This document shows positions 1 through 18,035 of a stretch of 64,000 nucleotides of DNA, in pieces. The first letter of the stretch is position 1; each line of letters starts with the position of its first letter. Origin of the DNA: an uncultured Bacillales bacterium (lineage in GTDB: Bacteria > Bacillota_I > Bacilli_A > RF39 > UBA660); assembly GCA_947648915.1 (NCBI GenBank), contig CANSPQ010000001.1, positions 12,429 through 76,428 of the forward strand, in the 5' to 3' direction. A program made the position numbers and the translations under genes. The notes below the pieces were generated by a model. That model searched no databases. It was not told where the DNA came from and saw nothing but the letters and a program-made list of their open reading frames with translations.

Positions 1-1316
1 CCTCCAGTACCTATTCCTAACACAGTACCTATAGCTCTAACAGTTCCTCTTCTGCCACTGCTTTCACCCATAAAAGCTTTTTTCCAACCATCTTTTTTTG
101 CATTCGATAGTAGTGCTGCAGTATTAGCGGCAATTCCCATTCCAGCTCCTGCAGCTAAAGCTACTCCACCTTTCATTGCGCCTGTTACTGCTTTTCCACC
201 TAAAGCTTGATCTCTAATTTTTTTCATTGGATTTAATGTTAATCCACCATTTATCTTAATTCCTAATATATTTTCAAGTAGTTTTGGAAGTTGTTTTGCA
301 AATATCAGTACACCGATAATAAGAAGTAAATCTATCCAAAACTTATATTTTACTTCTTCCCCTACTATTGTATATAGACTTTCTTTCGTAACAACTAGTT
401 TAATTACATAAACAGCAAAGAATAGAGCAAATAACCGAACGAATAAGTCTGCCCATGTTTTTCCAACTTCTTTCAGCCACTTTTTAAACATTCCGTCCTT
501 TCCTGATTTTGGATCTACATAAGAAATAATAGGTACTGGTGCAATAATTTGTAAAAATCCAAGTTTTATAGATCTTACTGCGATATCAAAACAGAATGAA
601 ACTAAAATTAAAAGAACAACAATTCCAACAAGTGTAGAAATAAAAAATTTATAATCTATGATATATGTTCCATTCCAAAAAGCTGGAGCCCTATTATAAA
701 TATTTGCTTTTAAATAGCGGGAAGGTGTGCCCCAATACCCTCCTAAATTTCCAATTAAACAATAGTTTTGTAATTCATTTAAATCAGGATCCCCTTCTGA
801 AATTTCGGGTTGATAAAAAGGACGAAATAATAAAAGGGAAATATAGTCTCCATCCGTTTCCGCATAAGAAACACTGGAACAGTAACTCGACATTTTATAG
901 GAACGGTTAGTAGCAATATCGCCCTCTGTTCCTAACAAAAACTTTGGAATCAGATTTTCTGTTAATATGGCATCTTGTACTTCGTATAATTTATTAAAGG
1001 CCGTCGGTGTAATAATAATCATTGCTAATACAAGTAGTATATTTAATATTATTTTATGTGCACCTTTTGATTTATCCGTTACTTGATCTGGACTTACTAA
1101 GTAAGTTATAAAGGAAAACGACACTTTAAACAACATGAATATACCTAATAATGAATAAATTTTAGTTGCAAATGCATTAATTTCTGTTTCCCCAAAAATC
1201 TCTACTTTAGAAAGTTGTAATATAATCTCATAAACTGTAGAAATTAGTGAAAAAACTGTACGGTCGATTGCTGCAAACAATCCACGAAAAAGATCAGCAC
1301 CCCATGATTCTGTCAT
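1..1316 (-). CDS. Polytopic membrane protein, 3'-truncated by window edge (N-terminal ~438 aa present); Gly/Ala-rich C-proximal tail; possibly VirB6/TrbL-like
   Basis: ATG at 1314-1316 (rc) preceded by AAAGGAGGTG RBS. The frame stays open to position 1 (checked at both ends: MTESWGADLFRGLFAAIDRTVFSLISTVYEIILQLSKVE... ...SGRRGTVRAIGTVLGIGTGG). Multiple hydrophobic segments. Not in the ORF track because it runs off the edge. Confidence 0.5.
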   Translation of the reverse strand, partial: MTESWGADLFRGLFAAIDRTVFSLISTVYEIILQLSKVEIFGETEINAFATKIYSLLGIFMLFKVSFSFITYLVSPDQVTDKSKGAHKIILNILLVLAMIIITPTAFNKLYEVQDAILTENLIPKFLLGTEGDIATNRSYKMSSYCSSVSYAETDGDYISLLLFRPFYQPEISEGDPDLNELQNYCLIGNLGGYWGTPSRYLKANIYNRAPAFWNGTYIIDYKFFISTLVGIVVLLILVSFCFDIAVRSIKLGFLQIIAPVPIISYVDPKSGKDGMFKKWLKEVGKTWADLFVRLFALFFAVYVIKLVVTKESLYTIVGEEVKYKFWIDLLLIIGVLIFAKQLPKLLENILGIKINGGLTLNPMKKIRDQALGGKAVTGAMKGGVALAAGAGMGIAANTAALLSNAKKDGWKKAFMGESSGRRGTVRAIGTVLGIGTG

Positions 1317-1333
1317 ATCTATCTACACCTCCT

Positions 1334-2347
1334 TTAAAATAATGAGCAAAATAATTGATTTCTCTCTATTCCATATGGAGCAAGGGCTCCACTCATATCA
1401 ATAATAAATGCTAATAGCATTGGTAAGAATATAATTGCAGCACCTATTATAAGTCTCTTGATTAATTTTGACCATGCTGTTTTGAAGTTCTTTTCTTCCC
1501 CAGATAATACAATACCAATAAAATCAATAATAGTTAAAATAACGATTATAATTGGAACAGCAAGTTGAATCAGATCAATTATTTGTTTTAATATATCTGT
1601 TATTCTATCTCCAAATACATTACACCCTGCCGATTTTTCTTGAATATCATCATCTTTAATTTCAACACAATCATTTCCTACGCATCCTATTGTATGTGTA
1701 AAGTTAGCACAATTTGAATATCCTTCCTTTTGTTCAAAGGAGATATTAAGTTTAATTTCTCCGTAAATAGAATCGCAATTTTCACATAAACAATATAATT
1801 TATCACGGCAACCACTTAATGTTGAATCGCCAGAACAATTGCTTCCATCAAAATGTAGGCTTATCTTCCTATTATCACGTTGACTCACAAGAAAATAAGT
1901 ATTTAAAGCTGTCCCTGTACTATTGTAATTAAAATTTACACTAGGGGTTGTACCTGGAATTTCATATCGGCAACTCAAAGTTTCAGAAGGCATCCTTTTG
2001 GTTAATGTCATTTTTACATCATTTGATGCATCATATCCATCTACTTCAGAGCAACTTCTAGAAAAAAGGTGTTTTTCAAAGGCATCATGAGTCACATAAC
2101 AAACTGTGTTAGGAGCTGTATTAAAATTTCTATAATCATTTTCACTGACACCATGAAATTCTATTCCTACTTCATTATCAAATTGACAATAAGAGTTTAT
2201 ACCAACATCTTCGCTATAACATGTCACCCATGAAATTCCATTAGAATCCACATATTCAACAGATATTGGAGCAGCATCTACTTTCCCCACATTACAAATA
2301 AATAATACAATTGATAAAAGAAATATATTTCTTAATGTTTTTTGCAT
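1334..2347 (-). CDS. Cys-rich secreted protein with N-terminal signal peptide and two C-terminal TM helices (Tad-locus accessory protein)
   Basis: ORF track 337 aa. The signal-like N-terminus is MQKTLRNIFLLSIVLFICNVGKVDAAP. There are about 20 Cys. The C-terminal hydrophobic pair contains a KLIKR motif shared with the next gene. Stop is 15 nt upstream of the next gene's RBS. Confidence 0.6.
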   Translation of the reverse strand: MQKTLRNIFLLSIVLFICNVGKVDAAPISVEYVDSNGISWVTCYSEDVGINSYCQFDNEVGIEFHGVSENDYRNFNTAPNTVCYVTHDAFEKHLFSRSCSEVDGYDASNDVKMTLTKRMPSETLSCRYEIPGTTPSVNFNYNSTGTALNTYFLVSQRDNRKISLHFDGSNCSGDSTLSGCRDKLYCLCENCDSIYGEIKLNISFEQKEGYSNCANFTHTIGCVGNDCVEIKDDDIQEKSAGCNVFGDRITDILKQIIDLIQLAVPIIIVILTIIDFIGIVLSGEEKNFKTAWSKLIKRLIIGAAIIFLPMLLAFIIDMSGALAPYGIERNQLFCSLF

Positions 2348-2450
2348 ATAATCACCTAAACTTAAATTTTCACAAATATATTATAACATAAAAAAAAATA
2401 ATAAGAAATATAAATCCTATTACTTTTTTTAAATCTTGCCTATTTAAACT

Positions 2451-2810
2451 TTAGGGCTTAGGCTTAGAACAATCTCCGTTAAGGAAGCAATTAAAGCAAC
2501 TTTTTTCTTTTTCAGTACCCTTTACTGAATCAGCATCTATTGCACCAAAAATCCATTGTACCAATGCTATAACAAAGAATACTAACACTGCATATAATAC
2601 TCTTTTAATTAACTTTGTTTGAGCGCCTTTCATTTCTTTTTCATCATTAGACATTACTGCTTTTCCTAAATCAATCATACCAAAGATAACTAATATAATT
2701 GGGATAACAATTTTAATAATATTTACTACAAGATGAACTGTATCTGGAATAACATCATCAATATTTCCACCTAATCCATTACATGTAACCATATCTAACA
2801 CTTCTAACAT
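2451..2810 (-). CDS. Small membrane protein (two TM) with KLIKR C-terminal module paralogous to the 1334..2347 C-terminus
   Basis: ORF 2451..2843. The start is more likely the internal ATG at 2808-2810 (MLEVLDM...), which is preceded by TAGGAGG. Contains KGAQTKLIKRVLYAVLVFFVIALVQWIF, compared with KTAWSKLIKRLIIGAAIIFLPMLLAFII in the neighbouring gene. Confidence 0.55.
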   Translation of the reverse strand: MLEVLDMVTCNGLGGNIDDVIPDTVHLVVNIIKIVIPIILVIFGMIDLGKAVMSNDEKEMKGAQTKLIKRVLYAVLVFFVIALVQWIFGAIDADSVKGTEKEKSCFNCFLNGDCSKPKP

Positions 2811-2898
2811 TTTAAAACCTCCTATAATTCTTATTTGAAACAAGGAAACTTGTCTCTTTCTTATTCACTATACCCTTTTTTCCTTTTTTTGTCAATGT

Positions 2899-3906
2899 TT
2901 ACTTACTAAATAATCCTAAAATACTATTTTTCTTCTCTTGCTCATCGGTTTTTTGACGTGTAAAACCTAATCTTACCAACAACAAATTGAGTGCATGTAT
3001 ACTTTTTTCTCTTTCATCTAATGGTGGCATATTATAATAGATTTTAGATCCTGACTCATATTCAAAATCAAGCACATCTTTGGCATTTAATAAACTTTGA
3101 TTTAAAATAATCTTCTTATTCTTCAATTCTTTAAATGCACTGCTATTGATTAGCATTAACCTATTCAACTTAATAATGGATGGTTCTACTAAGTAAAGAA
3201 CCTCATCACAAAAGCTTTCTGCTTCTTTGCTATCGTTGATATCAATTAATATGGCATTGTAATCTCTATATTTTGCGATTGCATTTCCAATATCTGTATT
3301 TGGAATAGAGATTAACTTCTTATCATTGAAATAGCGAAAATCGCTTTTGTTTACTTCTAATGCAATGACAGAATAATTTTTTTCTAACTGTTTTACCATC
3401 ATATAAATTAATGTAGTTGCCCCTGATTGTTTGGTGACATTTTTCACCCCAATAATTTTATGTGTCACAACAGGTTCAGTTACCTCTACATATTTTTCTA
3501 CTACAACATCTTGCACTTTATTTGCGTCCAATTGATGAATGTGAGCAACATCACGGTAAGTATTAGGATTATTGTATAGATACATAATTCCTTCTATGTT
3601 TTTCGTAAAATTATAAATTCCCATAGAAATCAATTTTGATAAGTAATCATTTGATCCACTTTCTTCGGAGTCATCTAGCAATAGTATTACCTTATCCATA
3701 TCTAGGGAGATAGATAACCTTTGTAATGTTTTAATATCTTTATAATTTTTAAGAGCTGTAATATCCAAAATCATTCTCTGAAAAAAGAAATTTTGAAACT
3801 GTGTAATGATATCATCGACGGAAAATTCGCCTTCTAAAGTTTTAATTACATCAATTTCTAATCCTTGTAACATTGCTTTTTGTTTATTTGCTATAATTAC
3901 GTTCAT
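2899..3906 (-). CDS. TadZ/CpaE-like pilus-assembly protein (pseudo-receiver N-domain + degenerate ParA/MinD-type ATPase domain)
   Basis: 335 aa. The N-terminal part looks like a receiver fold. The central IIGVKNVTKQSGATTLIYMMV segment sits where a ParA/MinD deviant Walker A (KGGxGKTT) would be, but is degenerate. GGGAGGA RBS. Lies within the flp-tadE cluster. Confidence 0.5.
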   Translation of the reverse strand: MNVIIANKQKAMLQGLEIDVIKTLEGEFSVDDIITQFQNFFFQRMILDITALKNYKDIKTLQRLSISLDMDKVILLLDDSEESGSNDYLSKLISMGIYNFTKNIEGIMYLYNNPNTYRDVAHIHQLDANKVQDVVVEKYVEVTEPVVTHKIIGVKNVTKQSGATTLIYMMVKQLEKNYSVIALEVNKSDFRYFNDKKLISIPNTDIGNAIAKYRDYNAILIDINDSKEAESFCDEVLYLVEPSIIKLNRLMLINSSAFKELKNKKIILNQSLLNAKDVLDFEYESGSKIYYNMPPLDEREKSIHALNLLLVRLGFTRQKTDEQEKKNSILGLFSK

Positions 3907-3924
3907 TAGATTTATTCCTCCCTT

Positions 3925-4347
3925 TTATCCTATTATCCCCATTATTTTGGTTTCCCCATACACAGGAAATTCTAAATGATTTCCTATAATTGGAAAATCA
4001 AAATACATATAAGCCGCTACACCATAGTATTTTCCTTTATTTGTATCATACTCATAAACACAATAACGGTAGCCGTTATTTGTAGTGACAATTGACTCTT
4101 GTCCATTACGTGTTGGGCACCCTTTGTTCGTTGTATCTACACGATATCCCATTTCACTTAATGTTGAAGCAATCTCACTTTTTGCTGCATCATTATATGC
4201 TTCGTATTTTTCAATAATATCTACTATTCTATTCTTTACCTTAAACGCCTTTGAATAGGTCAAAGAACCAGCAAAAAAGAATATAAATATAACTACAAAA
4301 ACAATAACAATTTGAAGTATATATGCATTTGCAATTGATTCTTTCAT
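3925..4347 (-). CDS. TadE/TadF-like pseudopilin (paralog 2)
   Basis: 140 aa with a single N-terminal TM (ILQIVIVFVVIFIFFFAGSLTYSKAFKV). Shares with 4359..4808 the blocks SLTYxKxFKV...EKxExYN...EIxxxLxxxGYR...CPT...YxYCVYEY, including a conserved Cys pair. Confidence 0.55.
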   Translation of the reverse strand: MKESIANAYILQIVIVFVVIFIFFFAGSLTYSKAFKVKNRIVDIIEKYEAYNDAAKSEIASTLSEMGYRVDTTNKGCPTRNGQESIVTTNNGYRYCVYEYDTNKGKYYGVAAYMYFDFPIIGNHLEFPVYGETKIMGIIG

Positions 4348-4358
4348 CTTATCACCAA

Positions 4359-4808
4359 CTATCTTTGACTAAATTCATAAATACGTTCTGTTTCGGAATA
4401 AATAGGTAAGGAAAATGTTCCACCAACGATAGGGATATCCATATAAACATAAGTTAATATTCCATAAATAAAATATCGACTATTTTTTTCCGGATATTCA
4501 TAAACACAGTATTTATAGTTTGTCCCTATCCTTGTAATAGGTTGATATTCTATTCCATTATGTCTATGAGTTGGACAATTTAAATTACCATTGCTACTTG
4601 AGCGATACCCTAAGTTGGCTAAAGATGTTTCAATTTCTGCTGCTGATAATTCATTATACCCTTCAAATTTTTCTAATGAATTAGCAATTTTCCCATTCAC
4701 TTTAAAGGATTTCATATAACTTAAGGTTGCCGCCAAGAAACCGAAAGTAATCACAATAAACACAATCATAATATTATATAGAAATGTACTTCCGATTGCT
4801 TGTCTCAT
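4359..4808 (-). CDS. TadE/TadF-like pseudopilin (paralog 1)
   Basis: 149 aa. N-terminal TM (FLYNIMIVFIVITFGFLAATLSYMKSFKV). Paralogous to 3925..4347. Lies directly downstream of the flp pilin gene. Confidence 0.55.
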   Translation of the reverse strand: MRQAIGSTFLYNIMIVFIVITFGFLAATLSYMKSFKVNGKIANSLEKFEGYNELSAAEIETSLANLGYRSSSNGNLNCPTHRHNGIEYQPITRIGTNYKYCVYEYPEKNSRYFIYGILTYVYMDIPIVGGTFSLPIYSETERIYEFSQR

Positions 4809-4828
4809 ATCTTACACCACCCTAAAAA

Positions 4829-5011
4829 TTATGCACCTGTCGCTCCAGAGCAAGTACCATTTGTCCATACTCCACCGTTATTATGACATTCACTTCTCGC
4901 GCTTGTATTATTCATCATATTTGTAATGATTGGTGTAGCGATTGCGACAATAACACCAATTAATATGATTGTTACAACTGTCATATTTGCTTCTCCAGTT
5001 ACTTCTTTCAT
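4829..5011 (-). CDS. flp: Flp/Fap-family type IVb prepilin (60 aa)
   Basis: MKEVTGEANMTVVTIILIGVIVAIATPIITN... has a short leader, a G then E(+1) processing-site-like motif, a hydrophobic helix and a short Ser/Thr/Asn/Cys-rich tail. RBS AAGGTGGTGA. Sits in Tad locus context. Confidence 0.7.
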   Translation of the reverse strand: MKEVTGEANMTVVTIILIGVIVAIATPIITNMMNNTSARSECHNNGGVWTNGTCSGATGA

Positions 5012-5039
5012 TCTATCACCACCTTACACTTTCTATGTT

Positions 5040-5075
5040 TATAGTATAACACGTTTTACTTGAATTATCAAACAA
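5040..5075 (-). promoter_or_regulatory. Sigma-A-type promoter for flp operon: -35 TTGATA, 17-nt spacer, extended -10 TGtTATACT
   Basis: Read on the minus strand: ttTTGATAattcaagtaaaacgTGtTATACTat, with the -35 at 5066-5071 and the -10 at 5043-5048. It lies about 30 nt upstream of the flp RBS, in the 76-nt gap after the yfhO-like stop. Confidence 0.5.
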
Positions 5076-5087
5076 TTCCATAATACT

Positions 5088-7502
5088 TTACTTTTTTTTA
5101 CATATGATAAAATATAAACTAGATAAAAATATACTGCATATAGAAATAATGAGTCCTATAGGTAATCCTACTGGAATGTAATTTAAAACGATTTGATGTT
5201 TTCCTTTTTCCAATTCTATTCCTAAAAAGGTATCTACAACTTTAGTAGATAAGGTAGGAATTCCATCCACTTTTATATGCCATCCTTTATCATAAGGAAT
5301 AGAAAGAAATAGTATAGAATTATTTTCTAATGTAATTTCTCCATACAATTCATTTTGGTTTATTTGAATATTTTGCAATGTATTTTTTTGTAACACTTTT
5401 ATTTGTTGCTGAAATAATTCTTCATTCAATTGGTAAATCGAAATTCCTTCTACCTGAGTTTTTCCTTTTGGATGAATGGTTAATTCTATTAAATCTTCTA
5501 CCTGAGTTGCTTGAAAGACGCCATGTGCCTCCCACTCTTTCAATTCTTTTCCATTTAAAGTAACTTGTGCAATATCTTGTTGTAAGGTATTGCCTTCTTT
5601 ATAGTGAATCTGTATGTAATAATCTCCAGATGAAACAGGCACTCTATATTCTGTTTCAGTATCTTTGCTCTCATAAATCATTTTGAATACATCTTCATTA
5701 CTACCAGTGAATGCTTTTAATAGATCATTTTGAAAGGTAAAAGCATTCGATTCATTTAAGTTTATTCTATTATGATGTATGAAATAACCAATTGGTAGGC
5801 TATATGGATTTTGATATAAAATGTTATCTTCTGTAATCCAATCAATCGGTTCTAAAATATCATATCCAGTACTTTTTTCTCTCGACGTTATATAAGTTTG
5901 AATTCCAAGTAAAGAATCTATTACGATGGTATTTGTATTCACATCAATGTTTGATACTCCAGTTGTTGGATAACCTGCCTTCTTCATAAAGTGATAAATT
6001 TCTTTGGAATTGGTTGATAAAAAACTTGTGAGTTCTTTTGTATTACAAATCATAGAATCTAATCCGCTATAAGAATCGGCATGCCCTGTTCTATAAATAG
6101 GATCAGAGTTTTGGCAATTAGAAATCATACTTTCTAGTTTGATGTTGTCACTTGCGCCTTGAAAGGTAAGCTCAAAATTCAGTAATATTTCACCAAATGC
6201 AATGATAAAAAATAAAATTGAAAAAATATTTTTTTGATTTCTCCCCCTCTGATATAATAAAATGCTATATAAAAGTAAAAATATACCTGTTATAACAATT
6301 TCCTCAAAACCTAAATATTCATAATTTGAATAAATGAGAATGATACTCATTAATATATATATAATTATAAGTGAAATTATTTGTTTGATAGAAACCTTTA
6401 TCTTAGAATAAGTAGAAGTTGCAACAGCAATAAGAAAAAAGGTAAATAAATAAGAGTTTCGATTCATGAAATAATTAGGCATCGAAAATCCATGCCATAA
6501 ATAAATGAAAAATGGAACAATACAACTTAGTAATATTAGAACAAGAAGAAAAAATGTTCTTTTTTTATTTTTGATATCACTACTTACAAAATAAAAGTAA
6601 ACTAACACAATAGAAAATACACCACAATATAGATTGGTTCCATGCGCATTGAGTACGTTCTTACAATTATGGGCACCTATATAGAGTTTTGCAAGCAATT
6701 CTTTCAAATTGTTAATAATAGAATGAATATCCCACATGTTATTTACCGAATAGCGAAATACACTCTTTAGTTCAATTATGGTAGGAAGTAATAGACACAT
6801 CGTAACCCCTACACCCAAAATGGAACATAAAATAAAATGAAAAGTTGTTTTTGATATTATTTTTTGACCTTTTATATACATTTGAATCAAAAAATAGAAG
6901 AATACAAAAATACAAGTCATATAGCCTGTATAAAAATTACTGAAAATTGTTAACAATAAGAAGCTAAAATACATTCCTTTTTTGCTATATGCAATCAATC
7001 GATCAATTCCCAGTAAAACAAGTGGTAATAGATATACAGCATCTAGCCACATCACATGAAAATAATATTGTACTGTATACCCCATAAGTGCATAGGCTGT
7101 TGAAAATAGATAATTCATCTTGTGATTTTGTGGATAATGTTTTTGTAAATATAAATGCATGGTTCCACCAGATAATCCAATTTTGAAAACAATTAAAATA
7201 AATAAGGCAATTGGAATACTCGTTTTTGAAAAGAAAATTAGAATTATATTGAGTGGGCTTGCTAAGTAATAGGCAAATGTCGCTATCATACTTCCGCCCA
7301 TACCCTTAGAAAAAGAATATAGTATGCTTTCTTTTCCCATAAATACATCTCGTAAATAGGAAAACAAAGAAACATATTGTGCCTTCATATCCGATATCAT
7401 AAAATTTTCGCTTTTTATTGTATATCCTAGTAAGTAATATCCTATTATAAATATAATAATTGGGATACCAAAGGCAATTACAAATTTTTTCATCTCTTTC
7501 AT
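5088..7502 (-). CDS. YfhO-family polytopic membrane glycosyltransferase (GT-C fold) with large C-terminal extracytoplasmic domain
   Basis: 804 aa. About 14 N-terminal TM helices followed by a roughly 330-aa soluble domain. Overall architecture and N-terminal sequence (YLLGYTIKSENFMISDMKAQYVSLFSYLRDVFMGKESILYSFSKGMGG...) are typical of bacterial YfhO proteins. Confidence 0.6.
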   Translation of the reverse strand: MKEMKKFVIAFGIPIIIFIIGYYLLGYTIKSENFMISDMKAQYVSLFSYLRDVFMGKESILYSFSKGMGGSMIATFAYYLASPLNIILIFFSKTSIPIALFILIVFKIGLSGGTMHLYLQKHYPQNHKMNYLFSTAYALMGYTVQYYFHVMWLDAVYLLPLVLLGIDRLIAYSKKGMYFSFLLLTIFSNFYTGYMTCIFVFFYFLIQMYIKGQKIISKTTFHFILCSILGVGVTMCLLLPTIIELKSVFRYSVNNMWDIHSIINNLKELLAKLYIGAHNCKNVLNAHGTNLYCGVFSIVLVYFYFVSSDIKNKKRTFFLLVLILLSCIVPFFIYLWHGFSMPNYFMNRNSYLFTFFLIAVATSTYSKIKVSIKQIISLIIIYILMSIILIYSNYEYLGFEEIVITGIFLLLYSILLYQRGRNQKNIFSILFFIIAFGEILLNFELTFQGASDNIKLESMISNCQNSDPIYRTGHADSYSGLDSMICNTKELTSFLSTNSKEIYHFMKKAGYPTTGVSNIDVNTNTIVIDSLLGIQTYITSREKSTGYDILEPIDWITEDNILYQNPYSLPIGYFIHHNRINLNESNAFTFQNDLLKAFTGSNEDVFKMIYESKDTETEYRVPVSSGDYYIQIHYKEGNTLQQDIAQVTLNGKELKEWEAHGVFQATQVEDLIELTIHPKGKTQVEGISIYQLNEELFQQQIKVLQKNTLQNIQINQNELYGEITLENNSILFLSIPYDKGWHIKVDGIPTLSTKVVDTFLGIELEKGKHQIVLNYIPVGLPIGLIISICSIFLSSLYFIICKKK

Positions 7503-7642
7503 AGCATCACCATATGATTTTATTATAAAGCAAATATATATATTTTAAAACATCTTTTAGTCAATTATTTTAAATCATTTAAATAAAAAATAAGTTTTAA
7601 ACCAAAATAAAAAACAACCTATACTAGCGCTGAATTTAAATA

Positions 7643-8017
7643 CTATACTTCTACTTTTTCTTCTGAAATCTCACAAAGATATTTTTTAAAACTTTCAATA
7701 TATGTTTCAATTTCTTCTGGATCTACGGTTCCAACTTTCATCATTATATGACTATTTGGCAATTGGTATAATACATCAGTTTTCACAATACTATCCTTGT
7801 TTAACCCGTTCTTTTTATTTTTTGGAATAAGAATATTATATTTATATTTTTGCTTTTGAATCTGTGATGAAATCAACATACCAAAATAATCTATTGATAT
7901 TGCTAAATTATTACCTGTTTTTTCGTAATCAATTATTACAAATAAATGATTATTCCCCTTGCTCCCATCAGCATAGTCATATTCGCTTGCAAATACGATA
8001 TCTCCAACGTTATACAT
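7643..8017 (-). CDS. MazF/PemK-family toxin-like protein
   Basis: 124 aa. The blocks VGDIVFASEYDYADGSKGNNHLFVIID, ISSQIQKQKYKYNILIP and NKDSIVKTDVLYQLP align by eye with B. subtilis NdoA/MazF ([61 protein letters not shown]). Confidence 0.5.
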   Translation of the reverse strand: MYNVGDIVFASEYDYADGSKGNNHLFVIIDYEKTGNNLAISIDYFGMLISSQIQKQKYKYNILIPKNKKNGLNKDSIVKTDVLYQLPNSHIMMKVGTVDPEEIETYIESFKKYLCEISEEKVEV

Positions 8018-8037
8018 TTATCATTTTTCATTCCTTT

Positions 8038-10120: not shown

Positions 10121-10133
10121 TTAAATACCTCCT

Positions 10134-11252: not shown

Positions 11253-11255
11253 ATA

Positions 11256-12065
11256 TTAACCTTCTACTTGCCCCATTGCTGCAGTTAATTCATCATTTGG
11301 AACAGTATTAGCATTGATAAAGTCTCTTAAAGTTTGTGAACTTACCATAGTGCTTCCCTCTGGTACTACCGCAGTTCCACCATGTGGTACTGGGAATAAT
11401 TCAGCTGAGAAAGCAGTCATGTATTTTCCTTTTAATAACAATACGTTAATTTCTGGTTGTACTCCAAAGATTAAACTACTTGGTGTACGAGCTTCATCGC
11501 TATTTTCAAATACATTTCTTCCTGCAGAATCTTTTACAGCTAATACTTTTACGTTTTCTACTAATTTACCAACCATAAGCTGTCCATTTTCATTTACAGC
11601 TTTCATGTAAATATCAATGTAATTTCCAGGAAAAATTGAATTTCCATAAGTTTTATCCATTGTAACAGCCATATTGTAAGGAACTTCTCCATCGGCTACT
11701 TCAACAAATGCGGAATCTGGTAAATCAGCTTCATTTACTACAACTCCACTATAGAACATACTTCCTTTTGGAATTACAGTATTGTAGTTGCTATATTTAC
11801 CAATCACAAATGCGGATGAACGAATTACGTTACTCTGCAATACAACTGGTGCTACATCGACATATTCAATCATGTCAGATGTAATTCTTGTTCTTGGTTG
11901 AATGGTCTGTGCTGCTACTGGTATTCTTTTAACTGGGTTTACCATTCTGTTAATTTGGATACGATATCCAAAGAATAAGACTAAGATAATCGCGATTACT
12001 CCAATAATCGTAACTGTGTTTTTGTTTCTAAAAAATCTTTTTAATGCAATCATAAAATTATTCAT
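11256..12065 (-). CDS. CpaB/RcpC-like Flp pilus assembly protein (N-terminal TM + SAF-like domain)
   Basis: 269 aa. TM is VTIIGVIAIILVLFFGY. This is followed by IPVAAQTIQPRTRITSDMIEYVDVAPVV, typical of the SAF/CpaB fold. Immediately upstream of tadA. Confidence 0.5.
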   Translation of the reverse strand: MNNFMIALKRFFRNKNTVTIIGVIAIILVLFFGYRIQINRMVNPVKRIPVAAQTIQPRTRITSDMIEYVDVAPVVLQSNVIRSSAFVIGKYSNYNTVIPKGSMFYSGVVVNEADLPDSAFVEVADGEVPYNMAVTMDKTYGNSIFPGNYIDIYMKAVNENGQLMVGKLVENVKVLAVKDSAGRNVFENSDEARTPSSLIFGVQPEINVLLLKGKYMTAFSAELFPVPHGGTAVVPEGSTMVSSQTLRDFINANTVPNDELTAAMGQVEG

Positions 12066-12081
12066 ATTTTTCTTCCTTTCT

Positions 12082-12483
12082 TTAATATGGTGTTTCTAAA
12101 ATCGCATCCAACCGATTGGAAATATCAAAATCGATAATTTCTTCTGTTACATTGGACTGTAATTTAGTGGAAACCCTCAAACTTACTTTTGGAGGTGTTT
12201 CGTTCACATCATATATTTCAACTTTATAAGTATTTCCTATGGTTACACTTTCTGCGAACCTCCTTATAAAGTTTTCAACAAATTTTTCACGATCGATACG
12301 AACAGTACCGGTTCTACGATAAGAGGCTAAGTCAACAGCGTCGTACATAGCCGCTTCTGTAATTTCTTTTAATAGGATATAGTTTTGTTCATCTGTATTG
12401 GTGACATTCTGGAAAAAGAAGATAAAAGCAACTGATGTGACACCGAGTAAGATAACAAATATACCCCAAAACGATTCTTTCAC
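12082..12483 (-). CDS. Small N-terminally anchored protein, pseudopilin/TadG-like candidate
   Basis: 133 aa. Begins MKESFWGIFVILLGVTSVAFIFFF, and the same MKES start is used by the 3925..4347 pseudopilin. Has a single TM and then a soluble domain. Confidence 0.4.
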   Translation of the reverse strand: MKESFWGIFVILLGVTSVAFIFFFQNVTNTDEQNYILLKEITEAAMYDAVDLASYRRTGTVRIDREKFVENFIRRFAESVTIGNTYKVEIYDVNETPPKVSLRVSTKLQSNVTEEIIDFDISNRLDAILETPY

Positions 12484-12495
12484 TTCTTTTCACCT

Positions 12496-15400
12496 CTATC
12501 TTTCTGAACATGCATAGAAATCACTATGTGATGAACTACTGCATACACTTTTATCCGTTTGAAGACCATATAATGGTTCTCTTATAAAATTACTTAAGCA
12601 AGCTACACCATCTTTACAAACTAATGTAAAATCTGCATAGCCATCATCACGAGAATCATTATACCTACGTATTTCTTTAATGGTATTGGTATCTAATATA
12701 AAGGTATAAAGTGGATCTTTCTGATAAACGGCGTTACCCTCTACACCACGGTTTTTTAATATTTGGGTTTCTACTAATTTTACACTATTCCAGTTTGATC
12801 CTGGATATCTTCCTATATGTGGATCTAGACTAAACTTATTGGTAGTATTACTTACCCCTGAGCCAGCTGTTTTCCCTGGGAATGGATTTCTAAGTGAAAT
12901 AGTTCTATAAATGATGTTAATTCCACCATAAGGACAAACAGTATCCTGACAAATTTTAACTGCCTCATCTTTCGAATATCCTGAACTCATATAACTAAAT
13001 ACACAAGGTTTAATATTCATTCCATCATTATATGTTCCATGTGGACAATGGAAATCCTCATTTATATTACATAAAGTACTCACACAATAATCGTAGGTTT
13101 TTCCGTTATTCAAGCAAGAGGTAATTTTAATCGTTCTATCATTTGGACAAAACTTATCATCTTCACATACTTCGTCAAAGGTCTCGTCACTATCACAATA
13201 TAGAATTTGAGCATCAGCACACGTAATCGTTGTAGAACTACTATTAGATCCATATATCTTACAATATAAATCTTTTCCAGCATGTTTTGTTCCCTCTGGG
13301 CAAACACACTCATCAGTAGGTGCATTTGTTACAGAATAATTACATACATATGGGTTTTGATTCGCAAGTTCTGTAAATTTTCCATCTTGGCCTAAACTAT
13401 CTACAATAATATTTAAATCATATGGTTCTTTTACATTTGCCGTAGAAGATATTGGTAAATTACTATATCCAATTTTAATATAGTCAACAGTTGGGATACT
13501 CATTGATGGTTTATTTGTTCTTTTCTCTACATAATGATATAAATTGTCTGGTAAAGAATAGGTTGCGGTTGCTGTAATTGTAATTGGTCTTTCATCAATT
13601 AATCGTACTATTTCTAGATATTTATCCATTAAACCTCCACGCAACGGCAGATCAGAAATTGTATAAGTTTTTAAAACATCTGAATGTTGACGTACATACT
13701 CTGTTGCGTCACATCCCTCACATCCAAAACTCTGACCTGACAACTTTAGTTGATGGGTTGTTCCATATTCTGGATCATTATATGACATAGATGTATCACT
13801 TTCAAAAGAATATAAGTCAGATGGATCCCATTTTGTTTTTCCTGCATATACAATATTGTTTAAAAATTCGGTTGCCCCATTATATGCATTAATATAGTTT
13901 TTACAAACATTAATTTTAGCATTAATAGCATTTAATTCGTTCTGCTTTTTATTCACCAATGCTTCACGTTGACTTTTTTCATTATTAGTACACGTAGATG
14001 TTATTGTTGTGACATTATTAGGTGGATTGTTTCTATCACAATCATTTAGACAGCTGTTGTACTCATCACCTCCATTATGAGGAGTATCAGCACACTCTCT
14101 TTTACAACTGTTTCTTTTATCATAGTTTTGATCTACTGTATTGGTTACTGTTGTACATTTATCTAACTCAGCTCTTGCTTCTTCTAATTCTCTCTGGCTT
14201 TTTAATTGTTGATCTCCATATGCACGATCTCCAATAAATGCGCAAGCATCTTCGGTTGCAAGTCCTTTGCTATCTATTTTTCCTCTTGCTGCAACCGTTC
14301 TTCTTATATTTTCAAGTTCTCCAACATAATTAATACCATTAACTGTTTGGTTTATGTTATTTATATGTGCTTGAAATGTTGTGTTCATATCTTCTTGAGA
14401 CATTGTATTTGGTGAAAATTTAATTTTACAAGTTTTAATTCCCTCATAACTTAAAGAATATAAATTTCCCCAAATAGTATTTAATGTTGCAGTAGATGTT
14501 GGCCATACAATGTGTGTTCCAACAGGTACTGGGTTAGCAATGCCCCCAGGATAATATTGATATGCTTCCTCTTTGCAGTATAACCATGCAACACTTCCGT
14601 CTCCAATCATTCTTGTGGGTTCTCCGTCCTCACTCGCGTTGCCACACTCGCTTCCATCTAATTCTTGCCAATAATGTCCAACGTGTGTTTGATTATCATT
14701 TGCACAAACTGCAGGTGTTCCTATAGTTTTTAATACACCACCTCTACAAACAGGAGCTGGTGGCTCAGAGCAAAAATGTTCTTTACATGCTTCTTCATCC
14801 ATATTGCCACAATCTGATAAGTAGTGCGCATTTCCATTATTATCTGTACAAACATAATCATTAGAATCATCAGGACAATACTGAGCTGCACACTCAACAC
14901 GACATTCCGTCATTTTACTTGGGTTTCCATTCATACAACTAGTGACACAACTTGTAATATCGACATTCTGCATGGTTGGATCTGTGCATGTTATATTTTG
15001 CGGACAATACAAACTTTTACAATAATTTTCTTCCTTGCCACTATTCACACAAGAAGTAATATCATGCGATACATTATTTACATCTGTACAAGTCTTTTTT
15101 TCTGTACAAGGATCACCAGTAATAATTGTTAAAAAGCGTTGATAGTATCCTCCATTTTTATGATGATAAAAATAAAGATTTCCCATATACATTGTTCCTA
15201 TATTTAATATTTCTTCAAAGTCATCTATAGCTTCTTTTGTTAAATTTTGACTTTTATCATTACTATAATGTCTAACTCCAACATAATAACTCATCAATGC
15301 ATTTGACGCATTTCCTTCAAATAAAGTTTTATCAAAACCTGACATTCCATCTGCTCTTAGCCAAAAATATACTTGAGTGACTAGATATTTTACCTGTCCT

Positions 15401-15723
15401 ATTTCACTACCTAAATTCGCATTTAATATATATTGAACGGCTCTTCTATCTCTATTATTTATTATTATTAACGGTAATTGATTATTATTTCTATAATATG
15501 CATTTTCCGTTGGGTCGACACTATATCCTGGGTTTAAACATAATGCTACAGCAGAACTCTTACTATCTGATATTTTTTCAATGTACAGAGTTTTTTTACT
15601 ATTTTTATAACTAAACTCTATTTGCGTCTTTCTAGGCTCTAGTGTCGCACAAAAATCTTCTGCCCCTACATTCACTGTAAACACTGCTAAAAAGATAGTA
15701 AATGCTATTAATATTTTTTTCAT
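12496..15723 (-). CDS. Giant (1075 aa) Cys-rich secreted protein; candidate pilus-associated adhesin
   Basis: Signal peptide MKKILIAFTIFLAVFTVNVGAEDF. Extremely Cys-dense central region (residues ~200-380: ...CPQNITCTDPTMQNVDITSCVTSCMNG...CRVECAAQYCPDD...). A coiled-coil-like segment follows. No LPXTG motif and no C-terminal TM. Uninterrupted 3.2-kb ORF. Confidence 0.55.
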   Translation of the reverse strand: MKKILIAFTIFLAVFTVNVGAEDFCATLEPRKTQIEFSYKNSKKTLYIEKISDSKSSAVALCLNPGYSVDPTENAYYRNNNQLPLIIINNRDRRAVQYILNANLGSEIGQVKYLVTQVYFWLRADGMSGFDKTLFEGNASNALMSYYVGVRHYSNDKSQNLTKEAIDDFEEILNIGTMYMGNLYFYHHKNGGYYQRFLTIITGDPCTEKKTCTDVNNVSHDITSCVNSGKEENYCKSLYCPQNITCTDPTMQNVDITSCVTSCMNGNPSKMTECRVECAAQYCPDDSNDYVCTDNNGNAHYLSDCGNMDEEACKEHFCSEPPAPVCRGGVLKTIGTPAVCANDNQTHVGHYWQELDGSECGNASEDGEPTRMIGDGSVAWLYCKEEAYQYYPGGIANPVPVGTHIVWPTSTATLNTIWGNLYSLSYEGIKTCKIKFSPNTMSQEDMNTTFQAHINNINQTVNGINYVGELENIRRTVAARGKIDSKGLATEDACAFIGDRAYGDQQLKSQRELEEARAELDKCTTVTNTVDQNYDKRNSCKRECADTPHNGGDEYNSCLNDCDRNNPPNNVTTITSTCTNNEKSQREALVNKKQNELNAINAKINVCKNYINAYNGATEFLNNIVYAGKTKWDPSDLYSFESDTSMSYNDPEYGTTHQLKLSGQSFGCEGCDATEYVRQHSDVLKTYTISDLPLRGGLMDKYLEIVRLIDERPITITATATYSLPDNLYHYVEKRTNKPSMSIPTVDYIKIGYSNLPISSTANVKEPYDLNIIVDSLGQDGKFTELANQNPYVCNYSVTNAPTDECVCPEGTKHAGKDLYCKIYGSNSSSTTITCADAQILYCDSDETFDEVCEDDKFCPNDRTIKITSCLNNGKTYDYCVSTLCNINEDFHCPHGTYNDGMNIKPCVFSYMSSGYSKDEAVKICQDTVCPYGGINIIYRTISLRNPFPGKTAGSGVSNTTNKFSLDPHIGRYPGSNWNSVKLVETQILKNRGVEGNAVYQKDPLYTFILDTNTIKEIRRYNDSRDDGYADFTLVCKDGVACLSNFIREPLYGLQTDKSVCSSSSHSDFYACSER

Positions 15724-15734
15724 TTGTACACCCC

Positions 15735-16379
15735 CTAAAATAGGCTACTTTTTTTATTATATCTATAAATTATAATAATTCCACCTACAATAAATATTGG
15801 TAAAACAATATAATAATAATCCAAATAGAATTCCAATATATAATCATATATTCCTTTAATATTCTCTTCTTCTTTTTTTTCAATTGGCTTTTCTTCTACT
15901 ACTTTTAAACTATTTACTTTTTCTTTAAATTCATTATAGGAAAGTGTCATATTTGTAAATTTCTGACACAATTCATTTTCTTCCATCCCGATACATACCT
16001 CATCTTGATAAAATGGATTGTATGGTGGAGTTGTTACATAATGAGAATATAATAACTGATTACTACAATAAATATCATTTGTATAAACATCAAATCGATA
16101 ACTTGTATTTGATCTTAAATTATAAATTGTAATCTCATTACCTTGATAATTATAGGTTTTATTATTCTTAATATCTTTTATGATAAAACCCTCTGGAATA
16201 TTGGATAGCGTAATTTGAAATGAAATGCGTCCATTTTCTTCGGTATAAGTATAACTAGATGTAATATTACTCGCTAATGTTTGATATTTTACTTTATCCT
16301 CATTGGAGCAAATAATTGCCTTTGTTTGAAACGGCAATAGTAAAATAAATAACCCTAAAAGAATTGGCAGTCGTTTCAT
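15735..16379 (-). CDS. Secreted protein with signal peptide and C-terminal TM anchor (214 aa)
   Basis: MKRLPILLGLFILLLPFQTKA signal. C-terminal YIVLPIFIVGGIIIIYRYNKK anchor. Several N-x-S/T sites. Confidence 0.5.
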   Translation of the reverse strand: MKRLPILLGLFILLLPFQTKAIICSNEDKVKYQTLASNITSSYTYTEENGRISFQITLSNIPEGFIIKDIKNNKTYNYQGNEITIYNLRSNTSYRFDVYTNDIYCSNQLLYSHYVTTPPYNPFYQDEVCIGMEENELCQKFTNMTLSYNEFKEKVNSLKVVEEKPIEKKEEENIKGIYDYILEFYLDYYYIVLPIFIVGGIIIIYRYNKKSSLF

Positions 16380-16451
16380 CCTATCTATCCTCTCTTTCTT
16401 ATTATAACATGAATTCCTTAATCTACAAGTGATTATTCAATATTTTTGACA

Positions 16452-18035
16452 TTATTTTACAACAATTTGGTAAATATACTCACGAAATGTGAAAGAAATT
16501 GTAATATGTTCTGCATATTCTAGTTCTTTTGGAACTTCAATGTAATAGACATTTTCCTCGGTCTGTCTATTTGGTTTTACCTGTTTCAAATTATGTATCG
16601 TTTTTTCTTCCCCATTTATTTCATACGTAATCATTCCAAAATCTTTGATTACACTATATAAATCAGATAATTTATGAATATAAGAATTTTCATCTAATGT
16701 AAAATTTCCAACTATTTTCATTAATGTTTTATCATAATTATCACTCATACTTGGTTTAATGTACTCTACTCCTGTTAAACAATTATTAGCTGTAATACAA
16801 TAAATGTAATTATTGATAAAAGTATCCCCTATTTCATAAGAAGCTATCTTGACTTTACTCTTTTTTAAAATACTTTGTGTAAGTGATATCTCTCTACCTA
16901 ATAAATAAGAAGTAGTGGTTTTTGTTGAATCATCAATTGGTGTAATCAATGTTTCAATTACTTTATCATTTTTATCTTGATATTTTAAAATTATTTTTTC
17001 TGTATTCAATTCTTTTGGTAATTCATAGACTAGTATATATGGTTCAAATGTAGTTGTCATATATTCATTATGATAAATATTTCCAAGATCATACATTACT
17101 TCTTTGTAATTATCACTTGCATGAAAAGAAGTATTTCCAATCATTAAAGTAAAACGAGATGGATTAAATACTTTTTTATTTACCTGATAATTCGAACGAA
17201 TTTGATATTGAATCACCAAAAACTTTTTATCCTTTTTAATCTCTTCATTATGATAACTTTTGCTTGTAAGATAACTATTTTCTATATTTATCATAAACTC
17301 GGTTGTCGTAAATGCTTCATTCTGTTTATATATTTTATGATATACTCCTACATTTAAATAAATAACTGCACAAATAACAGCAATAACAAGTAAGGCAATC
17401 ATATGGATCATAAACTTATTTTCTATATATACATATTTCGCATGTCTTAATTTTTTACGTAAATTTCTTTTTAACTGATCCGTATCTAATTCTACGTCTA
17501 TTTCAAATTCTTCATTATCTTCAGATGCGATTTTCAAATCTTCTAAATCTTGGTCAAAATCAAATTTCTTAATATTAAATCCTGTTGCACGCATCGCAAC
17601 TACAATTAAACTTAATGATTGTACGATTAATGCGAATAGGCAAAGATCTTGCATTATTTTTAGAGTTCTTATACTTAGTAATCCTGATTCTAATGTTTTG
17701 ATATTGGTATAACAAAATATAAATACAAATGCCATAAAACTATAAACGAATATATTGAATACATAAAAGCGAATTGGCTTTTTTTTGAAACTCATTAGTC
17801 CCAAAATAATAAATGTTAAAATAAGTACACCAATAATAACAATTATCATAATAGGTGAAAATAAATTAGATGTAATGTTGGTTCCAATGGTAGATAAATT
17901 TGAACTCATATATTCGCTAATGAATCTGAAAATCGTATTGGTTTTGAGCAATAAATATACAATCATAATTGTTAAGGTAAAATGAATTACTTTGAAATAC
18001 TTAATTAAAAATGCAAATGGTTTTCTAAATAACAT
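16452..18035 (-). CDS. Membrane protein: ~6 N-terminal TM helices + large extracytoplasmic C-terminal domain (first gene of right Tad sub-operon)
   Basis: ORF track 16452..18170. The more likely start is the ATG at rc(18033-18035) (MLFRKPFAFLIKYF...), which is preceded by AGGAAGGTGGA. 528 aa. Confidence 0.5.
   Translation of the reverse strand: MLFRKPFAFLIKYFKVIHFTLTIMIVYLLLKTNTIFRFISEYMSSNLSTIGTNITSNLFSPIMIIVIIGVLILTFIILGLMSFKKKPIRFYVFNIFVYSFMAFVFIFCYTNIKTLESGLLSIRTLKIMQDLCLFALIVQSLSLIVVAMRATGFNIKKFDFDQDLEDLKIASEDNEEFEIDVELDTDQLKRNLRKKLRHAKYVYIENKFMIHMIALLVIAVICAVIYLNVGVYHKIYKQNEAFTTTEFMINIENSYLTSKSYHNEEIKKDKKFLVIQYQIRSNYQVNKKVFNPSRFTLMIGNTSFHASDNYKEVMYDLGNIYHNEYMTTTFEPYILVYELPKELNTEKIILKYQDKNDKVIETLITPIDDSTKTTTSYLLGREISLTQSILKKSKVKIASYEIGDTFINNYIYCITANNCLTGVEYIKPSMSDNYDKTLMKIVGNFTLDENSYIHKLSDLYSVIKDFGMITYEINGEEKTIHNLKQVKPNRQTEENVYYIEVPKELEYAEHITISFTFREYIYQIVVK

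Follow-up and report, generated by a model that had tools for sequence, protein, structure and literature searches.

Conjugation in Gram-positive bacteria is held to proceed without a pilus or similar structure, and mating-pair formation is left unexplained (2024 EMBO J pLS20 paper; PMC8557374). In the pLS20 family of plasmids the conjugation operon comprises genes 34-54 (Val-Calvo et al. 2021, PMC8557374), among which genes 36 and 38-41 are listed as unknown. In the plasmid operons compared here, those of pBatNRS213 (pLS20 family), Enterococcus faecium pZB18, Listeria pLIS14 and a Paraclostridium plasmid, an adhesin gene was followed by genes for a ~126-aa transmembrane (TM) protein resembling DUF5411, a CpaF/VirB11 ATPase, proteins of ~270, ~240, ~120 and ~47 aa, a VirB2-like protein, VirD4, VirB6, a ~100-aa TM protein, VirB4 and a hydrolase. 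We describe here a gene cluster with the same order of parts in an uncultured Bacillales bacterium of the RF39 lineage, at one end of a 64,000-nucleotide stretch of contig CANSPQ010000001.1 (assembly GCA_947648915.1; "the window"). A preliminary description, made from the letters alone, had taken the cluster for a large Tad/Flp pilus locus with accessory genes. A Tad-derived module was borne out, but the downstream third of the block proved to be a type IV secretion system (T4SS) module, and not part of a stand-alone adhesion pilus. On homology and gene order, we read the whole, with a probability of about 0.7, as a chromosomally fixed monoderm T4SS of the pLS20/pXO1 class that incorporates a filament-assembly module, Tad-like but highly diverged. 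The locus does not correspond to a canonical Tad pilus, nor to any arrangement characterised before; no description of it was found in the literature on RF39 secretion and pili or on TadB/TadC together with VirB4/VirD4 in Bacillus.

Positions 1-18170 of the window formed a tight block of 18 co-directional minus-strand open reading frames (ORFs), numbered g18 (upstream) to g1 (window edge). The co-directional arrangement noted earlier was confirmed: gaps were mostly 3-20 nt, and a terminator scan found no terminator-like hairpin between the genes. Counts of promoter- and terminator-like sites in the block were not above those in shuffled sequence, so the scan was uninformative on operon structure save for the lack of intergenic terminators. 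The GC content of the cluster, ~25-33%, matched that of the remaining window. Families were assigned with Pfam and NCBIfam hidden Markov models (HMMs), PDB searches and hhalign profile-profile comparison, and TM segments were called from hydropathy. The conserved genes, all on one strand and in conserved order, were as follows.

16452-18038, minus strand: g18, 528-aa membrane protein, first conserved gene of the cluster, with about five N-terminal TM helices and a large extracytoplasmic C-terminal domain
15735-16379, minus strand: g17, 214-aa protein with a signal peptide, an ectodomain with conserved Cys and a TM anchor at the C-terminus
12496-15723, minus strand: g16, 1075-aa secreted protein with 51 Cys, hypervariable save for the C-terminal ~150-300 residues
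12082-12483, minus strand: g15, 133-aa DUF5411 protein with an N-terminal TM helix (Pfam DUF5411, 182 bits)
11256-12065, minus strand: g14, 269-aa CpaB/RcpC-like protein with an N-terminal TM anchor (Pfam RcpC, 29.2 bits)
10134-11252, minus strand: g13, 372-aa CpaF/TadA-class secretion ATPase (Pfam T2SSE, 96 bits)
9218-10120, minus strand: g12, 300-aa polytopic protein, homologue of pLS20 gene 38 and remote TadB-like platform candidate (hhalign)
8433-9218, minus strand: g11, 261-aa polytopic paralogue of g12, homologue of pLS20 gene 39 and second platform candidate (hhalign)
4829-5011, minus strand: g7, 60-aa pilin-like protein (alignment of 71 homologues)
4359-4808, minus strand: g6, 149-aa minor-pilin-like paralogue of g5, with two conserved Cys and a TM helix at the N-terminus
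3925-4347, minus strand: g5, 140-aa paralogue of g6 (hhalign g5-g6 100%)
2899-3906, minus strand: g4, 335-aa cytoplasmic protein with a receiver-like alpha/beta domain followed by a ParA/MinD-fold domain
2451-2810, minus strand: g3, 119-aa two-TM hairpin protein (longest ORF 130 aa) of the T4SS_pilin (VirB2-like) family (PF18895)
1334-2347, minus strand: g2, 337-aa protein in which a signal peptide and a variable, Cys-rich ectodomain (16 Cys) precede a C-terminal VirB2-like two-TM domain
1-1316, minus strand: g1, truncated at the window edge, N-terminal 438 aa of a polytopic VirB6/TrbL-like protein (TrbL_4)

An identical gene order was found in every one of the 160 related loci fetched that was long enough to show it. 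Genes past the left edge of the window are known from relatives, five of which (L002, L006, L021, L096 and L166) showed what lies downstream of g1. The closest of these, L002, had 86-93% identity to the window in core genes and continued downstream exactly as the others did. Since the operon of the relatives runs on past g1, the window by this comparison holds only the upstream two-thirds of one cluster, with a predicted total of about 25-27 kb.

The left end of the cluster is identified as a T4SS by the VirB2-like and VirB6-like genes, followed in relatives by VirB4, VirD4 and hydrolase genes. g3 and the C-terminal 80 residues of g2 had one two-TM domain in common (hhalign 99.4%). Both window copies were below the PF18895 threshold, with scores of 19 and 16 bits (g3: E 0.01, and Mbov_0395, E 0.0037; residues 245-308 of g2: E 0.0016, and TrbC, E 0.036); PF18895 was matched by 23 of the 44 members of their family, with a best E of 4.8e-8, and was passed by a 708-aa g2 homologue in L104 (29 bits against a cut-off of 26.6). 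The family profile gave only chance helical matches in the PDB, and g3 was not relatable by hhalign to the pLS20 gene-45 group. g1 scored 24.3 bits with TrbL_4, just under the cut-off of 27. Its full-length homologues in relatives were 617-728 aa long; that of L006 matched Mbov_0396 at 1.2e-10, below the equivalog cut-off, and the g1 family HMM matched the "extended VirB6-like" protein of pBatNRS213 at 6.6e-7.

After g1, the relatives encoded in the same direction a ~105-aa two-TM protein (VirB3-like), a 181-aa TraC-like fragment, a 594-aa VirB4, a SpoIID+CHAP hydrolase, a lipoprotein and a VirD4 coupling protein. VirB4 matched the Mbov_0397 family at 348 bits and the CD1110 family at 176 bits, besides AAA_10 and DUF87, and the L002 copy was 80-85% identical to the query set. 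An ORF of 181-187 aa, carrying the TraC-like N-terminal domain, and the 594-aa ATPase ORF overlapped by a few bases in ~106 loci (e.g. L021, 18216-20545; L006, 18920-19468; L166, 19050-20903), so this split of VirB4 is a genuine feature rather than a sequencing frameshift. The 181-aa fragment was not relatable by hhalign to pLS20 gene 51. VirD4 (PF02534, 179 bits; TrwB_AAD_bind, 90 bits; TraG-D_C, 86 bits) was found downstream in 42 of the 45 VirB4-anchored loci with at least 6 kb of sequence downstream of VirB4. The hydrolase (SpoIID, 64 bits; CHAP, 53 bits) was poorly conserved and was found by tblastn in 37 loci.

Downstream of VirD4, some lineages encoded one more secreted, Cys-rich protein of 700 aa, whose T4SS_pilin domain exceeds the Pfam threshold at 29 bits (L104, 17039-19165; L160, ~20008-20241). 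These extra proteins suggest movable or expanding arrays of VirB2 fusions, as reported for Patescibacteria.

A Tad ancestry of the remaining module is indicated by the likeness of g13 to CpaF, of g14 to CpaB and of g12 to TadB, by the fold of g4 and by an intermediate form on a Bacillus cereus plasmid. The CpaF/TadA-type ATPase recognised earlier was upheld by the T2SSE score of g13 and by its best PDB match, CpaF (8rkd, 6.9e-19), which extended over residues 8-298, nearly the full length. Archaeal GspE and FlaI came next, and VirB11 was aligned over the ATPase core only. Against canonical Tad proteins, drawn from three annotated proteobacterial plasmids, hhalign gave 99.6% for g13 and CpaF. 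The NCBIfam scores of g13 for VirB11, TadA and FlaI were all under their equivalog cut-offs; g13 is of the ATPase class called "VirB11-like" in conjugation operons of Firmicutes, and its best plasmid matches were Firmicutes conjugative plasmids at ~31% identity. The CpaB-like assignment of g14 also held, at the borderline: its RcpC score just passed the Pfam cut-off of 28.8 bits, TIGR03177 gave 34 bits (under the equivalog cut-off of 71), and hhalign gave 88.6% with proteobacterial CpaB and 99.75% with a B. cereus plasmid CpaB.

For the proposed TadB and TadC, no Tad HMM of Pfam or NCBIfam matched at E<0.1, and a remote link to TadB was found by hhalign. An exhaustive phmmer search with g12 against 1.8 billion representatives yielded just 276 matches, mostly fragments. 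Among ten distant full-length homologues that were scanned, one touched T2SSF below threshold (P0258, E 6e-4). When distant full-length matches were added, the diversified g12 profile aligned with TadB at 91.6% (E 8e-7, 191 columns) and with the pLS20 gene-38 family at 97.8%; as controls, TadB and TadC gave 97.9% with each other and unrelated membrane families less than 1%. g11 aligned with the diversified g12 profile at 94% and with the gene-39 family at 92%, and its family HMM matched hyp245 of pBat at 1.9e-5. Compared directly with TadB and TadC it gave ~1%, and it is thus tied to TadB only through g12. g12 and g11 are, on this remote homology only, candidates for a TadB-like platform pair of the T2SSF superfamily. 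The label "fatty-acid desaturase", given by one source to the g12 homologues P0477 and P0493, is probably a mis-annotation from a weak resemblance to FA_desaturase (E 0.28-0.69).

The TadZ/CpaE-like protein of the preliminary description, g4, had a ParA/MinD fold and a TadZ-like layout, with no match to a TadZ HMM at E<0.1. Its AlphaFold2 (AF2) model consisted of two alpha/beta domains (pLDDT confidence 69), and TadZ was among the matches for its ParA/MinD fold. The Walker A motif was degenerate, with an invariant GxKNxTKQxGxT that lacks the lysine of GK[ST]. hhalign gave 1% with TadZ and did not relate g4 to the AAA protein of the B. cereus plasmid, and a single-sequence PDB search returned nothing meaningful. 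The predicted two-domain layout therefore resembles TadZ at the level of the fold, not of the family.

The 60-aa protein g7 had been called a Flp prepilin, a label that was not sustained: it had no Flp_Fap match and no G/XXXXEY motif (no EY), hhalign gave 2% with Flp, and it was not relatable to the 47-aa plasmid proteins. An archaeal Pilin_N match was weak (E 0.0099). The 71 homologues had in common a near-invariant leader, MKEAAGEAN(M/L)TV, a hydrophobic helix and a C-terminal CC..GG.W..C motif, and g7 is, by these features, a candidate for the major filament subunit. g5 and g6, described earlier as two paralogous TadE-like pseudopilins, are indeed paralogues; they gave no Pfam TadE match and less than 1% with TadE by hhalign, and the N-terminal TM helix topology was all that they had in common with TadE. 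They reached 25-33% by hhalign with the DUF4320 group and matched DUF4320/hyp120 by HMM at ~2e-3, and g6 sits at the position of pLS20 gene 40 (DUF4320). The family HMM of g15 matched hyp126 of pBatNRS213 at E 1.8e-7 and hyp122b of pZB18 at 3e-4 (hhalign 67%). g15 would accordingly be the counterpart of pLS20 gene 36, perhaps a minor-pilin-like protein or an assembly factor. In all, four of the seven Tad core components first proposed found no match among Tad HMMs.

A search of plasmid proteins (72,556 plasmids) placed Firmicutes conjugative plasmids at the top with ~30% identity, above proteobacterial CpaF and VirB11; these included the pLS20 family, E. faecium pZB18, and Listeria, Paraclostridium and pXO1-like Bacillus plasmids. 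Homology to pLS20-family operons was matched by position for the ATPase, both polytopic proteins, DUF5411, VirB6, VirB4 and VirD4. g13 corresponded to pLS20 gene 37 ("VirB11"; 1.7e-53), g15, g12 and g11 to genes 36, 38 and 39 as given above, and g5/g6 weakly to gene 40/DUF4320. The ~105-aa TM protein of the relatives corresponded to DUF5592 (9e-5), their VirB4 to plasmid VirB4 (5e-41), their VirD4 to plasmid VirD4 (2.5e-75) and the g1 family to the extended VirB6-like protein. The cluster differed from the pLS20 family in being chromosomal and vertically inherited, with no relaxase, replication genes or Rap/Phr/Rco regulation seen nearby. It had CpaB-like and TadZ-like genes, which the pLS20 family lacks; its VirD4 gene closed the operon, where the plasmids have it before VirB6; VirB4 was divided into ORFs of 181 and 594 aa; no VirB8-like gene was detected. 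The putative adhesin was Cys-rich and without a known fold, not of the thioester or SpaA type, and identities were only ~20-31%.

With Tad/Flp (type IVc) systems, such as Aggregatibacter tad, Caulobacter cpa and Bifidobacterium tad, the cluster shares an ATPase of the CpaF/TadA class, a protein resembling CpaB/RcpC, and small and larger pilin-like proteins. Its two paralogous single-domain candidates for platform proteins directly follow the ATPase, as in Tad/Flp systems, and at fold level the resemblance extends to a two-domain protein of the ParA/MinD type. Secretin and TadD were absent, as stated earlier and as expected in a monoderm. In contrast to Tad/Flp systems, the platform, TadZ-like, pilin and pseudopilin genes failed Tad models, neither a Flp motif nor TadV/CpaA was present, and the Tad-like module was embedded in a T4SS operon. 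The pXO1-like plasmid locus of B. cereus (L169) appears, from its gene content, to be an intermediate form. Its order was CpaB, AAA ATPase, CpaF/VirB11, two polytopic proteins and three ~67-aa proteins. It resembled the cluster in the CpaB likeness given above and in an ATPase of 29-30% identity that is followed by two polytopic proteins, then by small hydrophobic proteins and two proteins of ~180-200 aa; it differed in that a ParA-type gene with a recognisable AAA signature preceded the ATPase, the small pilins had a longer leader, and no T4SS genes lay in its 6-kb flanks.

The best NCBIfam matches of the pilin-like, VirB6-like and VirB4 proteins were the families Mbov_0395, Mbov_0396 and Mbov_0397 of the minimal T4SS of Mycoplasma integrative and conjugative elements (ICEs), which has the same local order of a pilin-like protein, a polytopic TM protein and VirB4 and also includes VirD4. 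Unlike in the Mycoplasma ICE, all scores of the cluster were below the equivalog cut-offs, the host is walled, a cell-wall hydrolase is present, a Tad-like module is attached, and there was no DDE transposase or other ICE backbone gene. Patescibacteria, a lineage with reduced genomes, have a widely conserved chromosomal T4SS that is usually relaxase-less (Microb Genom 2025, PMC12102498). It resembles the cluster in its MPF_FATA-related set of VirB4, VirB6 and VirB3, its VirB2-like pilins and its variable pilin-like paralogues. It belongs to another phylum, and the cluster, in contrast, links VirD4, the hydrolase and the Tad-like ATPase/platform module physically; the parallel is a suggestive analogy. 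In gut Firmicutes, the likewise uncharacterised DUF5411-CpaF-PilC operons bring together DUF5411, a CpaF-class ATPase and a platform protein; they differ in a platform recognisable as PilC/GspF, in an internalin-like protein and in having no reported T4SS genes.

The cluster was widespread. Its ATPase was carried by at least 543 species-level genomes, almost all of them gut metagenome-assembled genomes (MAGs), from animals and humans, that bear the label uncultured Bacilli, Tenericutes or Mollicutes, and was 76-90% identical across at least 80 species. The arrangement is therefore very common, yet it is uncharacterised and belongs to no named cultured genus. VirB4 lay within 10 kb in 28 of the 45 ATPase-anchored loci, and most of the other 17 had a flank that ended inside the cluster. 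Housekeeping genes recurred on both sides, ScpA/ScpB upstream and RmuC, DedA and RNase R downstream; in a common human-gut species the cluster was flanked by CinA and an HD protein. No relaxase, integrase or recombinase family recurred within 10 kb on either side of the 160 loci. Pairwise divergence of cluster genes followed that of the flanks (RmuC and VirD4, r=0.92; RmuC and VirB4, 0.78; ScpA and ATPase, 0.67), the two halves of the cluster co-varied (ATPase and VirB4, r=0.86), and the cluster ATPases (76-98%) were more conserved than ScpA and RmuC (47-90%). A megablast of the 18-kb region against the same 72,556 plasmids found no near-identical copy. As a sequence pattern, this divergence fits vertical inheritance under strong purifying selection, not a circulating ICE.

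Two other origins of the DNA were rejected: a phage or prophage, as no phage-like genes were present, and a plasmid contig, since the flanks are housekeeping genes and the window carries genes for germination, the cell wall and DNA repair.

The T4SS with a built-in Tad-like module may work as follows. The hexameric CpaF-class ATPase g13, so assigned by homology, would power a membrane platform of g12 and g11 (remote homology), which the CpaB-like g14 and the ParA/MinD-fold, TadZ-like scaffold g4 might assist, to judge from superfamily and fold. The module could polymerise g7, together with g5, g6 and g15, into a pseudopilus or thin filament that crosses the Gram-positive wall, and the filament could present the Cys-rich g16, g17 and the ectodomain of g2 for contact with target cells. 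The adjoining T4SS module would form the translocation channel, as judged by homology and largely from relatives, out of the VirB2-like g3 and g2, the VirB6-like g1, the VirB3-like protein, the split VirB4, the SpoIID+CHAP hydrolase, the lipoprotein and VirD4. A substrate recruited by VirD4, which in the plasmid relatives is plasmid DNA, would then pass through the channel. We infer that the two modules act together. Vertical inheritance, strong purifying selection and the lack of a nearby relaxase or integrase argue that the system has probably been domesticated, whether for exchange of chromosomal DNA, delivery of DNA or protein, or cell-cell contact.

Several points weigh against this reading. 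Within the module, no T2SSF (PF00482) HMM matched g12, g11 or 16 members of their families; g12 found nothing meaningful in the PDB by sequence and its family profile only chance helical matches, and its AF2 model was too poor for fold comparison. g7, g5 and g6 had no similarity to Flp or TadE detectable by hhalign, and the pilin-like proteins had no canonical cleavage motif. As the preliminary description had remarked, no prepilin peptidase was visible: a TadV profile, built from only three proteobacterial sequences, found none (E<0.09) among the 3607 ORFs of the window and the 160 related loci. The modules are also separable. In the L152 lineage the T4SS module directly followed recG/yebC with no Tad module upstream, and 12 of 40 VirB4-anchored loci lacked any Tad gene within 10 kb; operons of the DUF5411-CpaF-PilC type, with no T4SS genes reported, occur in the Clostridia Roseburia, Ruminococcus and Eubacterium (Miller et al. 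2022, PMC9523054). Past VirB6, the T4SS genes fall outside the window and are predicted for this genome from its relatives. The search for a relaxase covered 10 kb on each side, and the gene could stand elsewhere in the genome. Finally, the paper on the pLS20 family states that the operons encode no pilus homologues (PMC8557374), and no experiment ties pLS20 genes 36-41 to a filament.

The separable modules would suit a self-contained Tad/Flp adhesive pilus whose secreted and membrane neighbours are adhesins, a separate T4SS merely adjoining it by conserved gene order. The Tad-derived core itself, the L152 lineage, the B. cereus Tad-like locus without VirD4 within 6 kb and the Clostridia operons all agree with such a pilus, and TANB77, a further clade of uncultured gut bacteria, has a described Tad pilus. 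The genes are, however, contiguous on one strand with no terminators between them, the VirB2-like genes directly follow the TadZ-like gene, and the same mixed order stands inside proven conjugation operons. Moreover, g13, g12, g11 and g15 have their nearest homologues among plasmid conjugation genes, not in chromosomal Tad loci. The correlated divergence of ATPase and VirB4 also speaks against two unrelated systems, though shared vertical descent would give the same. We consider a self-contained adhesive pilus unlikely. If the two modules do form one machine, it might work inwards, as an importer for DNA uptake or scavenging like ComB of Helicobacter pylori or archaeal Ced/Ted, in which the filament captures DNA and the VirB4/VirB6/VirB2-like channel imports it; this is a functional variant of the T4SS reading. 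It would suit the lack of a relaxase in or beside the cluster, the reduced genomes of the hosts (one circular MAG was 1.2 Mb) and the strong purifying selection, and Tad-like pili and VirB2/VirB6/VirB4 sets serve DNA import in other lineages (established knowledge and reviews). The VirD4 coupling protein in 42 of 45 loci sits badly with import, since ComB and Ced have no canonical type IV coupling protein (review), and the closest homologues are conjugation operons of the export type; we regard import as distinctly improbable.

A mobile origin, in which the cluster is the transfer region of an ICE or the remnant of an integrated plasmid that spreads horizontally among gut Bacilli and is not core chromosomal, is favoured by VirB4, VirD4, the hydrolase and VirB6, a complete monoderm mating-pair set. 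The mycoplasma ICE families that best match VirB4, VirB6 and the pilin-like proteins point the same way, as do a toxin-antitoxin pair inside the window copy and AbiE genes close by. Such a region would hardly have kept housekeeping flanks in many species, diverged in step with its flanking genes and shared the GC content of the remaining window, nor would one expect the absence of a recurring relaxase, integrase or recombinase within 10 kb and of a near-identical plasmid copy. A horizontally spreading element is thus very unlikely.

A broader proposal builds on the T4SS with a Tad-like module. The relaxase-less hybrid might be a core organelle of an order-level clade of RF39-like gut Bacilli with reduced genomes, exapted from conjugation for an obligatory cell-cell interaction. 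We put this forward tentatively and would sooner bet against it than for it. The interaction, if real, could be exchange of chromosomal DNA, acquisition of nutrients or DNA, or attachment to or parasitism of other cells, and the organelle would parallel the essential T4SS of Patescibacteria; as a corollary, the "pilus-less" Gram-positive conjugation systems of the pLS20 type would actually build a Tad-derived filament. Independently of that proposal, the cluster and its plasmid relatives place a recognisable, very diverged Tad-type assembly set beside VirB2-like pilin genes, which makes it a testable candidate for the missing filament; in pLS20 the genes in question would be 36-41 and 45, in a tractable host. 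RF39-like Bacilli are abundant in gut samples, uncultured and of reduced genome, and the combination of conserved motors (76-98% across species) with hypervariable Cys-rich exposed proteins is a plausible key to their cell interactions. Several components each have more than 5,000 database proteins now labelled "hypothetical", some of them mislabelled.

The exposed proteins of the cluster were far more variable than its motors, with median identities of 33-35%. Syntenic homologues of g18 (522-526 aa; the longest window ORF reaches 18170 from a TTG) were found in 70 of the first 80 loci at a median identity of 35%, and g17, with its conserved Cys and "P.YN.yY" motifs, was kept in 70-72 loci at 34%. 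Just ~13% of the length of g16 was alignable and conserved at the median across loci. Neither g18 nor g17 matched Pfam or NCBIfam, g18 had no PDB match, and g16 matched nothing in any of the three. Seven genes had been described as without recognisable family; this held for g18, g17 and g16, whereas the 133-aa gene belongs to DUF5411, and the 119-aa, 337-aa and edge-truncated genes are VirB2-like, VirB2-like at the C-terminus and TrbL/VirB6-like. Because the plasmid relatives carry an adhesin (Tie/thioester or SpaA-like) at the position of g16, we infer by analogy that g16 may be a surface adhesin or tip protein.

Every predicted extracytoplasmic protein of the cluster was rich in Cys or had conserved Cys (g16, 51; g2, 16; also g17, g5, g6, g7 and g3). 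Such a content is unusual for exported proteins of an anaerobic Firmicute, and no thiol-disulfide oxidoreductase gene was seen in the cluster.

Three genes that the preliminary description had passed over broke the block at 5088-8208, as a 3.4-kb insertion that is absent from L002.

8038-8208, minus strand: g10, 56-aa ORF forming a toxin-antitoxin-like pair with g9
7643-8017, minus strand: g9, 124-aa PemK/MazF-type toxin (PemK_toxin, 36.8 bits)
5088-7502, minus strand: g8, 804-aa YfhO-family GT-C glycosyltransferase (Pfam YfhO, 516 bits)

The g10/g9 pair was inserted between the platform and pilin genes and had no homologue in any of the 160 related loci, L002 included; by this distribution it is no part of the conserved system. 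The glycosyltransferase gene g8 lay directly upstream of g7 and had sub-cut-off similarity to the protein-glycosylation enzymes PgfM1/PgfM2 of Streptococcus mutans. A YfhO homologue at the same position in 13 of the 160 loci marks it as an occasional accessory, and glycosylation of a pilin or adhesin by it is possible. The tail of g7 has NNTS and NGT motifs.

Elsewhere in the window, a 490-aa protein (39500-40972, minus strand) carried at its N-terminus a canonical methylation motif of the prepilin type, MKKKGFTLVELLAVIVILA (Pfam N_methyl, 30.6 bits), and had a C-terminal domain of large size. Its presence implies a PilD/ComC-type prepilin peptidase somewhere in the genome, and such an enzyme might also process the pilin-like proteins of the cluster.

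The earlier view of the host as a Gram-positive spore former is plausible. It is reasonable because a GerA/GerC/GerB operon, SpmA/B-like genes and a DacB-type carboxypeptidase gene were present in the window; walled spore formers have been predicted for the related uncultured orders RF39, RFN20 and ML615J-28 (PMC10868615).

Just upstream of the cluster, at 21324-22759 on the minus strand, an AbiEii nucleotidyltransferase toxin gene (130 bits) adjoined a 195-aa AbiEi-like gene, and an AbiEii-like ORF lay upstream of the cluster in two other loci too (e.g. L009). Two paralogous ~300-aa proteins (29754-30728 and 50143-50994, minus strand) ended in repeated GIEQG/GLKQG motifs with a helix-turn-helix-like tail at the C-terminus; from their appearance they are putative transposases of the Rpn/YhgA-type PD-(D/E)XK group, and a similar ORF occurred downstream of the cluster in three loci (L132). 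Between 46702 and 61319 on the minus strand, a run of glycosyltransferase genes was accompanied by an ABC-2 transporter pair, an O-antigen-ligase-like protein and GT-C-like membrane proteins, and looks like a locus for cell-wall polysaccharide or teichoic-acid biosynthesis, unrelated to the cluster.

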